DNA of 62,987 bases, filler included, from Sluysia triapertura (GCA_046118255.1; 4 parts of 4 records of this genome joined end to end with filler, not necessarily neighbours in it); one strand, 5' to 3'; numbered from the whole stretch's first letter, positions 5,387 to 55,160 are shown. The notes: generated from the sequence alone by a model not told the origin. Numbers and translations: made by a program.

Positions 5387-7880
5387 TGGCGGCCAACACC
5401 CATAATTCAAAACTTTCTAAAACCTCACAACACCTAAATCACAATCATACTCAACATTATCAAATCACAACAGCTAGTTCACAAAAAACATAATAGCTAA
5501 ATCAATCACATTTCATACCATCGAATTACATTAACTGATGCATAATAAACAATATTCAACATTTATAATAATTCAATAACATATACATCTCAAACAATTC
5601 GTCTAATACTCTCAATCATTTACCTTACACTGTACTTTGATAATTAATACCGAATAGTCCATAACATTCACTCAATAGTCATCCTCCCAAACCAAATCAC
5701 AACCACAACATATAATATTAAAATCACAAATACATCAACACCATTCAAAAACATTAACAAGTACCTGAAACATAGAAAACATTTACGTTACAACCTAGAA
5801 TCAATTATACTAATTCAAACCCATTTAATCTACACATTATTAACATTCTACAACGACGTTGTAAATACGCCAAGATGTATTTTGTAATTGTCTTTTAAAT
5901 TTAATAAACTATAACCTTTAACAAGCCTTCCAAACCATTATATTCAGTGTATAAATTGTATTACCAACTATAAACTTTAAATAAACCACAAGAATTATTC
6001 TATCATTCGTCATTTTACTCACAGCTCAAATCATTTATGTTATCTTTAAAAATAAATTCAATACAGCTTTAAAGAATTCATTTTCTTATGATGAAGTAGC
6101 AACGATAAGTGAAACAAAGTGTACCACACTAGCGTTGCTCCTTCATATAATATCAATAGCTTTTATTCCTCAATTTTATTTCTTTTATGTAAGAAATTAA
6201 GATTTAGAAAGAAAAGATTTATGTGAATTATTCTTTGTTTCGTAATAATAATGACAATATTATTATTATTATTATTGCTACTAATATTATTATTAGCAAT
6301 TATTACATTATTTAAAAGTCCAATATTACTACCGTCATTAATATTGACACTTCTGTTCACCAATGTTATTAGAGTGTCAATATTGATGATGGTAATAATC
6401 AAAATTCATTATTTTTCACTGCCATCCAAACACTGTACATATCATTTAGTTTATTATTTCGAAGTCGTGATTGGATGGCCAACCCCATTTTACCGTAAAA
6501 TCAACAGCTAAAACTTTTAGAACGATATACAAAAACAAATTCTTTTTGTACCTCATTAACAAAAAATTTTAATGTTTTATTCTCAGTGGACTGAAAATTT
6601 AGATGTTACACAAAGTTTTGTATATTTAGTATTGTCTTCTAATAATATGATCTCATCGACTAAACCAAAACGAGAAAAATTAATAGATGAACAAGTTCAA
6701 CAAAAAACTGATCGAAATTTCCAAATCATAACTAAACAATTAGGTAATGAGAAACTATTTTAAGATGACTTAGAAAGCTATAACAATAAAGATTCTGACA
6801 ACAGCTCACGGATTATTTGTAATCGATATCATGCATCAAAAAACTACAAAATTTCACTTATTTTTCATGATCAACCAGGACAATCGACAATCGCAACAAA
6901 TGAACGCGATTGATTTAATTTTAAACTGTGTAATGCCTTGCATAAAATTAATGTTGGAAGATGATACTATGACTGATGTTAAAATTTATCTTCCTCGTTC
7001 TATTATTATAAACGAAATTTGGTGTAAAATTGATCGTCGTTTAACACTATGTTGTAAATCACGAGCGATTTATGTACCAAATTACGTCATCGGCAAAATA
7101 AATCATAAACAATTATACGTGTCAAAAGATGTTTATCTAACGATTTATAATTCATTGTTACCTAGAAAGAAAGTCAATCCGATTCTATTACTTGAAAAGG
7201 ATATTTTCTTAGTTAATAAACCGTTATTTCAGTGTGAACAAAAAAGGAAGTAAATCATCGACTTTTCCATTCAATACAGATAGTCTATTATATTTATTAA
7301 TTGAGAAGCATTTGTTACGATTGATGAGGAATCCATTGATAAGTGATAACGGAGATCGAGTGAATCGTTAGCTTTAAAGATGGAAATAGTCATTCCAAGA
7401 TGTTCTATTACACTACAGTTAATAGGATTAACTTATTCCTACCAGATCAACAATTAACTGTACCACTGGCAGTTAACGAAAGTATTGAATCAACTCCATG
7501 TACAATGAATCTATGCAAGTTTATGAGGAAGACTGTTCGTATGTAAGATTTGATTTTATATCTCTACCATTTTATATTTTAGATGACAAGTTTAGAAACT
7601 GGAACAGTGGAGAGCAACAAGATGTGGTGAAGTATAAATCTCAATCAATGGATGATTTATTCATTGAAGATAAATGTTTTGTTATATATAATAAAAATAT
7701 CTCATTTAAATTTTATGTATTTTTTTAAAAGACAAAAAGGATGGCTCAAACTCATTGGTTCTAAAGGTGAAATTATTGTCTTCTTATAAAAAGTATGATA
7801 AAGGAATAAGTTAATGTCATACAATAGCTAGAATGATAATTTTAAGTCTAAACCTATGTTTATAGAAATATTAGTAGGTG
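5387..7880 (+). mobile_element. Gypsy-leader-derived cassette, copy C: PBS-like motif, A/C-rich leader, (TTA)n, hairpin, orphan ORF
   Basis: Starts TGGCGGCCAACACC (5387). A/C-skewed leader resembles 14100-14700(-) and 50327-50920(+). Hairpin at 6331-6393; decayed ORF at about 6440-7800. Confidence 0.55.
6780..7780 (+). pseudogene. Decayed intronless orphan ORF; N-terminal part possibly macrodomain (TARG1/OARD1-like)
   Basis: ORFs 6831-7253 and 7498-7728 are separated by stops/frameshifts. KFHLFFMINQ...LILNCVMPCIKLML...VKIYLPRSIIINEIWCKIDRRL loosely follows the TARG1-type pattern IF.L.TK...L...L...I.MPRIG.GL..L.W..V. By-eye similarity only. Confidence 0.35.
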
Positions 7881-8620
7881 TGAGGTGTATATTGTTAAAA
7901 CTAACCACAGCTAATTCCACTATCCATCAGATCTTCCTACTAAACACTATGATGACCATCCTTGGTATAAATATTACGTGGAAACTTCGAAATTTTAACC
8001 TAATTATAAACTTCATACTTAACATGAATCATATTTATTTCTTTAATGATACGAATTATTTAAGAGATTACTTAGTCCTCGAAACTTGTAAAACTATAAA
8101 TCGGTATAAACTACTCAAAATTAAACAATTAAAAACATATTTAGTTAAAGAATCTAAACTTTTAAAATTATCACGTCATTTTACAAACTCACAACTTCCA
8201 AATAAATTAAATTAAATTATATTATTAAATTAAATTTCGTAAAAATACTTTTTAAGTACTTAATATTTAAATTCTCAAAAAACAATTTTTAAAATAATAT
8301 TTTACCGCTTATTAAACTTAATCTTAATATATTTTATCCTGGTTTCTTCTAAATGAAACCTAAAATGTACAGATATCTTCGAAAGTTTAGTGTACTGTTT
8401 CTTTCTAAAACGAAAACTAAATAAATTTGAAAATTTTATTCTGGTTCTTTATTAAATAAAACCGCATACTAAATTTTAATTGGTCTTACTTGGTTTCCTT
8501 TTTTAAATGAAACCTATGTTAAAAAAAATTTTAATGATTTTATATAGGTTCTCTATTAAAGAAAAGCCTTAATAAATTTTTAAATTTATATAGGTTCCAT
8601 ACTGAAAAGAACCGCTAAAA
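7880..8620 (+). mobile_element. Decayed LINE ORF2 C-terminus plus 3' UTR with tandem palindromes
   Basis: IHQIFLLNTMMTILGINITWKLRN resembles the LINE ORF2 C-terminal pattern Q.FQNK.LR.I....W.VRN. It is followed by six GGTTYC-N8-11-RAAACC palindromes. Confidence 0.45.
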
Positions 8621-52830: not shown

Positions 52831-53445
52831 TATTAACGTTAATTATAATTTCATAGTTGTTTATTTACTTAATTTATTGTTTTCAAAAGACCGTAACCCT
52901 ATTAAGTTAATTGTTTATAAATTTTATTTAAATTGTTTAATCTTAATTGTAAGTTCCAACTTTTTTCATAAATTTTTGAATTTAAAAACGAAAAGAAAAC
53001 AAAATTTAATGTTTTGAATAATTTTTTAGCCTAAAAACGAAAAAGCCCTCCCCACAATAATAACAAAGCCAAACGTAATTAATTTCTTTGAAGAAAATAA
53101 TCAAATTAAATTAGTATTACTTAACTTTATTTAATCTAAATTAAATTTTTAAATAAATTAAATTATTTGATTGAATTTTTTGGATAATGCAAATCACTTG
53201 AAAAATATGAAAAATATGTTAATTTCATTTTATGATCAGTGATAATTTTGTTTAAATCGATAAATATCCTTGAGAGTAGATATTGCTCTTTTACAAAAAT
53301 TATAAAGCAAAATTGATACATTTATAAATATTCTTCGTTAAGTTTCGTTGTCATGTCAACTCTAATGATTAAAAGATTGTGTTTCTTGTACCTTTTGACT
53401 TTGGTTGTGTTCTTTCACCTAATAACATTTTTATAGTTTATGTTG

Positions 53446-55160
53446 TGGTGGCTCAGCCGTTTATCACGATCATACTATATCATTAACACCACTTACAGAC
53501 ACGAACGAAAACTTTATCAGATATATACCATCACATATACCATCACATAACATCCCATCAAATCTTATACTATCACTATTACATTTCAACTCCAAAAACA
53601 ATAGAATTATTAAATCATCTATTTAAATTAAATTCTAAGTCAATAATATTAACCGTACCTTTAAAATAAATATAACTACCACAGACATCATATCATTTTT
53701 ACAGTTTCGTTGATACTTATGTTTTTATTATAATTTGAAAAGTCAGAGAAATAACTCATGAAATACGTTATTAATAAACAAAGAATTAAATAAGTAAAGA
53801 ATTGAGAAATTAAACATAAAGAAATTATTTAATTAAATAAAGAAATGTGAAGATTAAGTTAATCTTGGACTATTTTTGGAATTGGACAAAAAAATTTAAA
53901 AATAAATTTGAAGTGATAATTTTAAAATGAATTATGACTTTTCAAAGTGCAATGCTTAATGAATTTAGTTCAGATCGATGTGAAATCAAAGTTTATAATA
54001 CTGAGTGTTGTGAGAAGTCTATCCAATCATCATTGTAATGTATATATACACAATCAAAATTAGTAGTGTATTCACAACTAAATAAGCCACATAATACTTT
54101 GGCAAACAAAAAATTAATGTGTATAAAAACGAAAGAACGCTAAAGTTTATGAAGTTATTACGAAGAAAGTAACATGGCTTATATAGAATAGATGAATTAT
54201 AAATTGTATAAACTTGTTACGAATGCAGACTATTTCTCATATAGAACAGGTAATGTATAATGTAAATATGAATACAGATCATAAGTTCTTCGTTGAAGAG
54301 ATGATTAATAAACTTAATTTAAAGGCATTTGATACAATGTTTCATGAAGCTAAGATGATTGTTGATGAACCTGAACAAGACAGCAGTTTCGAAGTAAGAT
54401 AATTTCGAGTTATTAAACACTTTGTCGATTTTCTGGAATTGTTTGAAACGTAAAGTCATTATCATTCATGCATGACCTAGCACATTAGATATATAAATCC
54501 TATTCCTACTGTTTCATGTTTGTATCGGTCACTAAGTGATTACTATTTGTGATTGTGTATTTTACGAGCTGAAAGTAATATCAAGTCTTATTATTTAATT
54601 TGCGATCTCTTTTTAAATTGTGCTGCAAAATTAGCCTGTATACACGAGTATACAGATTTGTTAATTCTTTTTTTAGTGATTGTAAATGTTCTTATGTTTT
54701 GTATATTTTTAATTTGGACTTTTTTATAATTAAATGTTATGATGTTTTAAATGCTAAGTATCATTATCTTTTAAATAACGTGATATTTGATTTTTCAAAT
54801 AAAAAGAATGGCTTTTTTCTTATGTCAACACAAATAGAGATACAGTCTTCAACATCAGAAATTAATGGTATGGTCCATTTCGTCATGTACAGGTCACTAT
54901 TCAAACCTTTACAATAACTTGTATGGCTAGTTGCATGGAGTCTCTTTGGTACTATAAATTACCTTGGATTGTTTGTAATTTGGATGATAATGATATTCTA
55001 GTGACGTTAGGTGAAAGTCATTCGAGTTTCGTAATGCTGACCAGTGTTAGTGAATTAATCAGTGACAGAAAATTTTATTCACAGTAATTCAAACATGATA
55101 TATGGACGATTTGACTATAAAGTCATCGTTTTACATGTTACTTTATAACAAAAATAAAAA
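53446..55160 (+). mobile_element. Cassette copy F: PBS-like motif, short A/C-rich leader, decayed orphan ORF (about 53930-55120)
   Basis: TGGTGGCTCAGCCG resembles a tRNA-Pro-type Gypsy PBS (TGGGGGCTCAACCG). ORF pieces 54214-54402 and 54600-54917; AATAAA near 55153. Confidence 0.45.

Follow-up and report, generated by a model that had tools for sequence, protein, structure and literature searches.

A structured leader before unrelated decayed payloads in Sluysia triapertura: possible relics of host-mRNA capture by a Gypsy-type element

Introduction

What kind of element places one leader in front of unrelated genes? This question is raised by a stretch of 62,987 nucleotides, filler included, from Sluysia triapertura (GCA_046118255.1), referred to below as the window. 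A preliminary description, made from the sequence alone, had reported there a recurrent Gypsy-type leader cassette, with a Gag open reading frame (ORF) in the copy named B, unrelated decayed ORFs in the copies A, C, D, E and F, and partial copies at J, 30130+ and 52030+. Where payloads that are unrelated, intronless and multicopy stand behind a common structured 5′ module, with one Gag-like sibling, the simplest account is that a Gypsy-type element captured host mRNAs, which were then copied further in trans. We give even chances to the reading that the decayed units are old non-autonomous Gypsy-type derivatives carrying such captured mRNAs; the process is a known one, seen here in an unusually dense and diverged form. 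The animal cases of gene capture by long terminal repeat (LTR) elements are mostly young and of low copy number. A single structured leader that had carried and amplified many host genes, a developmental transcription factor among them, would provide a concrete origin, open to testing, for the multicopy orphan genes of AT-rich invertebrate genomes.

Related leaders

The leaders and leader-like tracts of the window are the following:

5385..6240, + strand: leader of unit C, with a TGG-type start, an A/C-rich tract and a T-rich tail; aligns to the leaders of A and B
14040..14704, − strand: leader of unit A, 68% to C
28680..29260, − strand: leader of unit D, distant kin of the A and F leaders
50325..51132, + strand: leader of unit B, with a long TTA tract; aligns to A and C
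53444..53740, + strand: short leader of unit F (z 8.2–8.9 with J)
26030..26335, + strand: short leader of unit J (z 8.2–8.9 with F)
56790..57095, + strand: A/C-rich, then T-rich leader-like tract, missed by the preliminary description; z 1.6–2.7 against seven leaders, homology not established
58200..58660, + strand: partial leader, likewise missed, kin of the 3′ half of the B leader; z 5.4 to B, partly low-complexity

Twelve leader-like segments were compared in 66 pairs with 20-nt block shuffles (40 for each pair), which keep the local composition. Six pairs reached z ≥ 3.5, and in none of them did any of the 40 shuffles score as high: C–A (z 32), F–J (8.2), A–B (4.8), A–D (4.3), D–F (3.8) and C–B (3.6). 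The similarity therefore exceeds shared composition in these pairs, but not in the remaining ones. A masked self-BLAST gave a single strong internal match, between C 5636–6214 and A 14674–14097 (68% over 592 columns, E 5e-71); A–B, C–B, A–D and J–F matched more weakly. The profile built from the C and A leaders retrieved B weakly (E 0.013) and missed D, F and J. No homologous leader was found for E, as none of its 11 pairs reached z ≥ 3.5.

As judged from these alignments, the leaders form one tight pair (C/A), one short-leader pair (F/J) and a loose web of distant kin, and are not ten copies of a cassette. The C-rich tracts described earlier at C, A, D, B, F and J are present on the strands given for them. 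The shared leader holds for C/A and for F/J, and weakly for B and D, but E, 30130+ and 52030+ have no demonstrable one. The two units at 56.8 and 58.2 kb have the same layout as those listed before.

It should be noted that unit D (− strand) and the 30130 unit (+ strand) point away from each other across a gap of 276 N (29250–29853 and 30130–31000) and have one skewed central tract in common; a divergent arrangement is possible.

A stem-loop with compensatory changes

Stem-loops were found between the leader and the ORF in three units:

6328..6396, + strand: unit C, after the TTA tract; −33.6 kcal/mol, z −7.0
28537..28605, − strand: unit D, followed by four CCAAT boxes; −45.3 kcal/mol, z −8.2
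13862..13928, − strand: unit A, decayed; z −2.3

Eight hairpin candidates were folded, and those of C, D and A were significant, A being the weakest. No significant hairpin was found at B, F, J, 30130+ and 52110+ (folding z −1.0 to +0.6). The hairpin had been described as conserved in A, C and D and in half in B, and as not visible in F; folding agrees with this for all of them except B.

The stem has 21 bp in C, D and A, its arms align without gaps, and the loops of 19–21 nt have TTCAC in common. In the three-way alignment 88.9% of the 63 cells are paired, and five of the 21 pairs are altered on both sides. The covariation score of the stem was reached by 6 of 500 shuffles, in a test made on three sequences with a structure derived from the same sequences. 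These compensatory changes are suggestive of conserved pairing, and the G-U pairs on the sense strand of the C and D stems would fit a function as RNA. A comparison of the A stem-loop with Rfam gave a weak miRNA-like score on the opposite strand (E 0.14).

Decayed reading frames unrelated to one another

The frames that follow the leaders, or have the same appearance, are these:

6647..8212, + strand: payload of unit C, decayed frame of ~520 codons, no family; 8 breaks vs 23 shuffled
12000..13616, − strand: payload of unit A, decayed frame of ~530 codons with stops and frameshifts; 9 breaks vs 24 shuffled
27150..28347, − strand: payload of unit D, decayed frame, no family; 8 breaks vs 18 shuffled
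17830..18580, − strand: payload of unit E, without a homologous leader; 4 breaks vs 11.6 shuffled
52305..52860, + strand: payload-like frame, the least decayed of the set, without visible leader or assigned family; 2 breaks vs 8.5 shuffled
53925..55100, + strand: payload of unit F, heavily decayed; 12 breaks vs 17.6 shuffled, antisense 13
from ~59130, within 58200–60000, + strand: decayed frame after the partial leader, with TTA/CAT tracts before it; no family

The breaks are the minimal numbers in a frameshift-tolerant reading, counted in regions whose limits were set by eye. The count showed a coding signal on the leader strand in C, A, D, E and the 52305 frame and a weak one in F; for B, J and 30130+ no strand preference was seen. 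Three stop-free frames of 150 or more codons were observed against 0.07 expected, and the payloads of C and A can be read through without assuming introns. None of the 36 payload pairs was related (maximal z 2.4). The description of decayed ORFs unlike one another was thus correct for A, C, D and E; the signal for the ORF in F is weak. Each unit is 1–3 kb long and has a single frame.

Identity of the payloads

Further features were located in or after the leaders:

12866..13036, − strand: weak T-box-like stretch in payload A (TBX1, PDB 4a04)
57120..57460, in the region 56790–57800, + strand: frameshifted copy of a REEP/HVA22 host gene after the 56.8-kb tract (Pfam PF03134)
51579..51842, + strand: Gag-capsid-like fragment of B, 88 residues, cut by a scaffold join, read by eye only
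26445..26960, + strand: Tc1/mariner-like transposase relic after the J leader, read by eye from translations; no Pfam transposase match

Ten PDB searches of payload frames were run in all. The sole match of the A payload was TBX1 (E 0.059, or 0.21 when trimmed). The alignment covers 57 residues, has two short gaps and keeps H, P, G, F, N, N, H, N, RY, R and DPR; by eye, the resemblance seems to extend both upstream and downstream of the matched stretch. A part of A was modelled by single-sequence AlphaFold (predicted local distance difference test, pLDDT, 38) as a generic beta-sandwich, a fold that agrees with a T-box without being peculiar to it. The T-box was absent from the top 50 fold matches of this low-scoring model, and the frame that follows the T-box-like stretch had no match. 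From these similarities the A payload is probably T-box-like. In E, positions 18334–18408 resemble the CCCH zinc finger of Unkempt weakly (PDB 5elh, E 0.2; Pfam zf-CCCH_UNK, E 0.12–0.21), and an Unkempt-like payload has, in our estimate, slightly less than an even chance. An earlier reading of E by eye as a glutathione S-transferase found no support.

In the REEP copy, positions 1–27 of PF03134 (E 4.7e-4) and positions 41–74 (E 2.5e-7, above the cut-off) are matched only 31 nt apart, which leaves no room for an intron; the REEP genes of this host presumably have introns. A processed-looking host gene does occur in this layout, which does not imply that it belongs to the same family as the other units. 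In view of the T-box-like and Unkempt-like payloads and the REEP domain, the word "orphan" is probably wrong for some payloads at least. The relic after the J leader is probably a nested insertion.

The fragment of B, which we take to resemble a PNMA-type Gag capsid, was modelled as helical at low confidence (single-sequence AlphaFold, pLDDT 37). The label Gypsy is used here because of this one unconfirmed fragment of 88 residues.

The other searches may be given together. No usable match was obtained with Pfam for 147 of the 168 frames of 55 or more residues, with PHROGs and NCBIfam, in a search of 5.8 billion proteins with A, the B fragment and C, in ESM Atlas with A and B, or in IMG/VR with the 52305 frame and D. 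REEP was the only usable Pfam match of the read-through frames. HMMER over 1.84 billion representatives gave no match for B, 52305 and F joined in one frame (C, A, D and E were not part of this query), and a metagenome scan gave two short matches that were taken as chance.

The failure to name most payloads might also be explained if they were strongly diverged Gag proteins of the kind known from Bhikhari, or endogenised genes of RNA viruses, on a Gypsy leader. Indeed, the ORF of Bhikhari remained uncharacterised for long and proved to be a Gag by structure prediction, according to the part of its description used here (PMC12067270). Intronless payloads of 0.6–1.6 kb would also fit single viral genes. 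However, the payloads are mutually unrelated, the model of A is rich in beta-strands and not helical like a capsid (at pLDDT 38), no viral match was found in PHROGs, IMG/VR or PDB, and all the matches that bear a name are of host type. We therefore regard a Gag or viral origin of the payloads as highly improbable.

Cover by divergent contigs

The state of the copies was examined with 37,624 contigs of one public run, aligned at 80% likeness to positions 4900–21900, a region that holds C, A and E and leaves D, B, F and J outside. Depth in this analysis is not copy number, as the tool cautions, and the run may be the source of the window itself. Long exact contigs had a depth of 8–21 and the background bins of 32–69. 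Meanwhile, the payload bins reached 750–2,800 in C, 890–3,400 in A and 215–400 in E, and the leader bins 28,000 and 76,000. Up to 20 contigs with a different letter per site covered the C payload, and up to 19 the A payload. The depth was 5,500–36,500 at the listed sites between 5577 and 5858 of the C leader and 30,000–46,000 at three listed sites of the A leader. At two listed joints, there were contigs in part C-like and in part A-like. This run was the only public one found to contain the DNA; no RNA data set was listed with it, from which nothing follows about expression.

The payloads of C, A and E look multicopy, in agreement with the preliminary description, and the leaders of C and A far more so. 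Many divergent contigs cover the payload of E and, in C and A, both leader and payload, which speaks for multiple, presumably dispersed copies. Upstream of A the depth is 24.7 at 14804, and therefore no abundant repeat lies before A. Upstream of C it is 62,000 at 5257, and the abundant repeat that adjoins C there has no downstream match. It should be noted that at 5220–5385 an AATAAA stands directly before the TGG motif of C; this abundant sequence could be a remnant of an LTR or an unrelated repeat.

At the 3′ end of the leader the depth falls steeply (573 at 14058 in A, 419 at 6121 in C), and that of the leader is ~10–100 times that of the payload. This is the pattern that would arise if the leader were an independent high-copy repeat, for example of the solo-LTR type, and the ORFs were ordinary processed pseudogenes or relics gathered in a repeat graveyard, so that the cassette would be illusory. 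Such an explanation also suits the leaderless E and 52305 frames, the J leader in front of a DNA-transposon-like relic, and the REEP copy, perhaps no more than a retrocopy that brought along a 5′ untranslated region of its own. In C, A, D, F and B, however, the frame lies on the same strand as the leader, ~0.1–0.5 kb from the end of the leader or hairpin. In C and A the cover is never at background between leader and payload, and the payloads themselves lie under many divergent contigs. A further point against it is the covarying hairpin between leader and ORF. We thus consider an illusory cassette improbable.

Possible host-mRNA capture and the points that weigh against it

A Gypsy-type element would capture host mRNAs in the following way. 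One leader lineage, as the alignments indicate, precedes unrelated payloads, and in C, D and A (n = 3) the pairing of the stem-loop appears to have been kept while its letters changed. The leader would be the 5′ end of the element, that is, an LTR or an LTR with an untranslated leader, and would supply the promoter and a hairpin for packaging or dimerisation. A co-packaged host mRNA would be copied in by template switching of the reverse transcriptase, as may be expected from known biology. Each chimera would then have been multiplied, as the contig cover suggests for C, A and E; an autonomous Gag-Pol partner presumably acted in trans. The leader of B is weakly homologous to those of A and C (z 3.6–4.8) and precedes the Gag-like fragment; B may be a relic of such a partner. 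The copies have decayed since and lack recognisable 3′ ends in this assembly. If this course of events is right, the covariation would single out the stem-loop as a candidate packaging signal of Gypsy elements.

A number of results weigh against this reading, the first group of which concerns the termini. No paired LTR was found among 48 valid pairs of 3′ with 5′ flanks (maximal z 2.1), among 21 pairs of 3′ flanks (2.8) or among 7 pairs of 3′ flank and leader (2.3). No target-site duplication (TSD) of 5–6 nt was found after CA within 700 nt for C, A and F, where only 4-mers at chance level occur and the 3′ ends are undefined. Purine tracts followed by a TGT motif, which might mark a polypurine tract (PPT), show no excess (3 observed vs 3.3 expected). 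The CA end nearest upstream is 5–27 nt off at all five starts, and at none within 4 nt. The retrocopy model of Tan et al. 2016, in the part used here, expects both LTRs (PMC5131818).

The second group concerns the payloads. Payload A had no match to the T-box of Pfam, and the T-box and Unkempt scores are no better than the ~1–2 chance matches that ten PDB searches yield. The last frame of C had been predicted beforehand, by eye, to be a T-box; when tested, it gave no T-box match and the reading was dropped. The Pfam and protein searches yielded no family for C, D, F and the 52305 frame. The REEP domain, the only firm host domain, stands behind a leader of unproven homology (z ≤ 2.7), and the payload of J was read by eye as a DNA-transposon relic. 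The Gag of B, asserted in the preliminary description, had no match in Pfam, PDB, two large protein searches, ESM Atlas or Foldseek.

In old, decayed copies and a gapped assembly the missing pair of LTRs may have been lost. We nevertheless keep our confidence in host-mRNA capture at evens because the published model expects both LTRs and none was found. The set of features that defines an LTR element (paired LTRs, a TSD, a primer-binding site (PBS) after the LTR end, and a PPT) was looked for in the units, and none was found, including the paired LTRs with TSDs for which the preliminary description had proposed to look. The units function like an LTR-mediated vector for gene capture, yet the evidence does not suffice to class them as an LTR element.

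The vector reading accordingly keeps its shared structured leader before unrelated intron-free payloads in C, A, D and probably B, but lacks the LTR signals. A single family of retro-mobilised vectors, as first proposed, does not stand: E, 30130+ and 52030+ have no demonstrable leader, J carries what reads as a DNA-transposon relic, and F/J are a separate short-leader group. Still bolder is the idea that a Gypsy-derived lineage of vectors with a packaging hairpin serially captured host regulators (T-box, Unkempt-type, REEP and others), each multiplied into a family and kept open until it was near beyond recognition. We regard this as rather doubtful; if it were true, transducing retroelements would act as a lineage-wide factory of orphan regulators.

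Several smaller observations bear on the termini. The TGG(T/C)GGC motif, described earlier as PBS-like, is found only at C, A and F (3 observed vs 0.83 expected, a count that is not evidence, as the patterns were written after seeing the sequence); it is absent from B, J and D and does not lie behind an LTR end. Immediately before the starts of B, F and J stands a TG, with which an LTR would also begin. As a mark of where the element or an LTR starts, the motif is more plausible than as a primer site. Ten letters of A resemble what we take to be a PBS for tRNA-Leu. The purine tract with TGT(A/T)AC, which had been noted after some ORFs, proved to be at chance level, and 30906 is the sole candidate at the sense 3′ end of a unit. 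The occurrences at 7887 (C) and 12668 (A) fall within decayed frames. Two candidate 3′ LTRs, at 7887–8186 and 12668–12254, were dropped because they lie within the frames and match no 5′ flank, and the pair G3–Fup was left out of the flank comparison as an overlap of the same bases.

Large Gypsy elements and other known systems

The arrangement of the + strand units leads to a different explanation. B, the 52305 frame, F and the units at 56.8 and 58.2 kb stand in a row, and a scaffold join lies where pol would follow Gag:

51843..51942, no strand: N-linker scaffold join between B and the 52030+ piece, whose adjacency is not to be assumed

The ORFs may thus be native accessory genes of large, Burro-like Gypsy elements, as the preliminary description had offered in the form of an alternative, each having a related leader or an internal promoter of its own, the gag-pol and LTRs having been lost to deletions and to a short-read assembly broken at TTA tracts. 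The CCAAT boxes between the hairpin and the ATG in C, A, D and B would agree with such promoters, modestly so with 105 boxes window-wide. Among planarians, domains of host origin and accessory ORFs are found in giant Gypsy elements (PMC6431247), and rotifer elements exchange types of ORF3 (PMC5408684), as far as the parts of these papers used here go. On the other hand, no pol or integrase remnant was found in the scanned regions, unscanned stretches remaining. The depth 100 nt upstream of the A leader is low, so that A does not lie inside a larger repeat there, and C, A and D are spaced apart, in both orientations. Accessory genes of large elements are in our judgement a rather unlikely source of the payloads; if this or another of the alternatives holds, the units are ordinary debris of large Gypsy elements.

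Host-mRNA capture has precedents, which are compared here with the units on the basis of excerpts of the sources. LTR-mediated retrocopies, including further rounds of copying, are described in animals (Tan et al. 2016, PMC5131818), as are the capture of host mRNA by a Gypsy-type element and copying in trans for Drosophila and other animals; Bs1 and HERV-K/FAM8A1 are cited there as cases. Like these retrocopies, the units have the 5′ part of a retroelement and then intronless host-derived sequence in place of the ORFs of the element, and could be copied again as non-autonomous elements. The published retrocopies are young, near-identical to the parent and low-copy, and have both LTRs. In contrast, the payloads described here are strongly diverged and multicopy-looking and stand behind one leader lineage whose hairpin covaries; neither a pair of LTRs nor a parent was seen.

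The units also resemble Burro/GYPSM1 of planarians (PMC6431247), elements of Gypsy type in very AT-rich animal genomes with host-derived regulatory domains and accessory ORFs. Burro exceeds 30 kb and encodes a huge gag-pol polyprotein, whereas the units have 1–3 kb and one frame each, and the Burro domains named in the excerpts of that paper include neither T-box nor Unkempt nor REEP. With BHIKHARI/crestin of zebrafish (PMC12067270) they share multiple copies, one long ORF of initially unclear origin, the lack of pol and movement in trans; solo LTRs far outnumber full copies there. The Bhikhari ORFs are inter-related Gag proteins in elements with both LTRs and TSDs, while the payloads here are unrelated and at least one is predicted to be beta-rich. 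Modular exchangeable ORFs, and non-autonomous elements in which the cis parts are kept and reshuffled, are known from the ORF3 elements of rotifers (PMC5408684) and the LARD, TRIM and TR-GAG elements of plants (PMC13570524). Unlike the payloads of the window, ORF3 of bdelloid rotifers sits after an intact gag-pol, and the plant elements are non-coding or have fragmentary coding sequence and are defined by terminal repeats that are absent here. A literature search for this combination of features found none; repeat libraries in supplements or Repbase may already describe such elements.

Setting of the units in the window

The A+T content of the window is ~75%, with many ATT microsatellites, and its base composition is similar to that of planarian genomes as given in part of PMC11410931. 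The REEP domain, the transposon relics and a tRNA-like repeat point to an animal. It contains three 100-nt N-linkers, two of which adjoin TTA repeats, besides the 276-N gap:

21986–22085, 33735–33834 and 51843–51942: N-linker joins, identical N44-TTAATTAATTAA-N44, artificial scaffold joins

As the joins are artificial, neighbourhood of the sequences across them is not to be assumed.

Several other repeats were noticed. A tRNA-like repeat at 37158–37227 (+ strand; Rfam tRNA, E 0.0019, without a call by ARAGORN) has related pieces near 48100–48290 (− strand) and at 5057–5141, with upstream sequence in common, and probably represents a short interspersed nuclear element or a family of tRNA pseudogenes. 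A mariner-type transposase relic was read by eye at 19800–20330 (+ strand); it is multicopy from contig depth and has no Pfam match. The repeats at 15700–16500 and 21343–21900 are under extreme contig cover (bin depth 400,000–500,000), and the latter also occurs at 41515–41720 and 55329–55538.

Between A and E, the stretches 15140–15640 and 16930–17520 (+ strand) are coding-like, are covered by contigs of low depth and match no family; they are possibly exons or relics of host genes. A further decayed coding-like stretch without a Pfam match lies at 61400–62250 (− strand). Downstream of unit C, at 8340–8620, there is a row of short imperfect GGTT...AACC palindromes, which are also present at 847–920.

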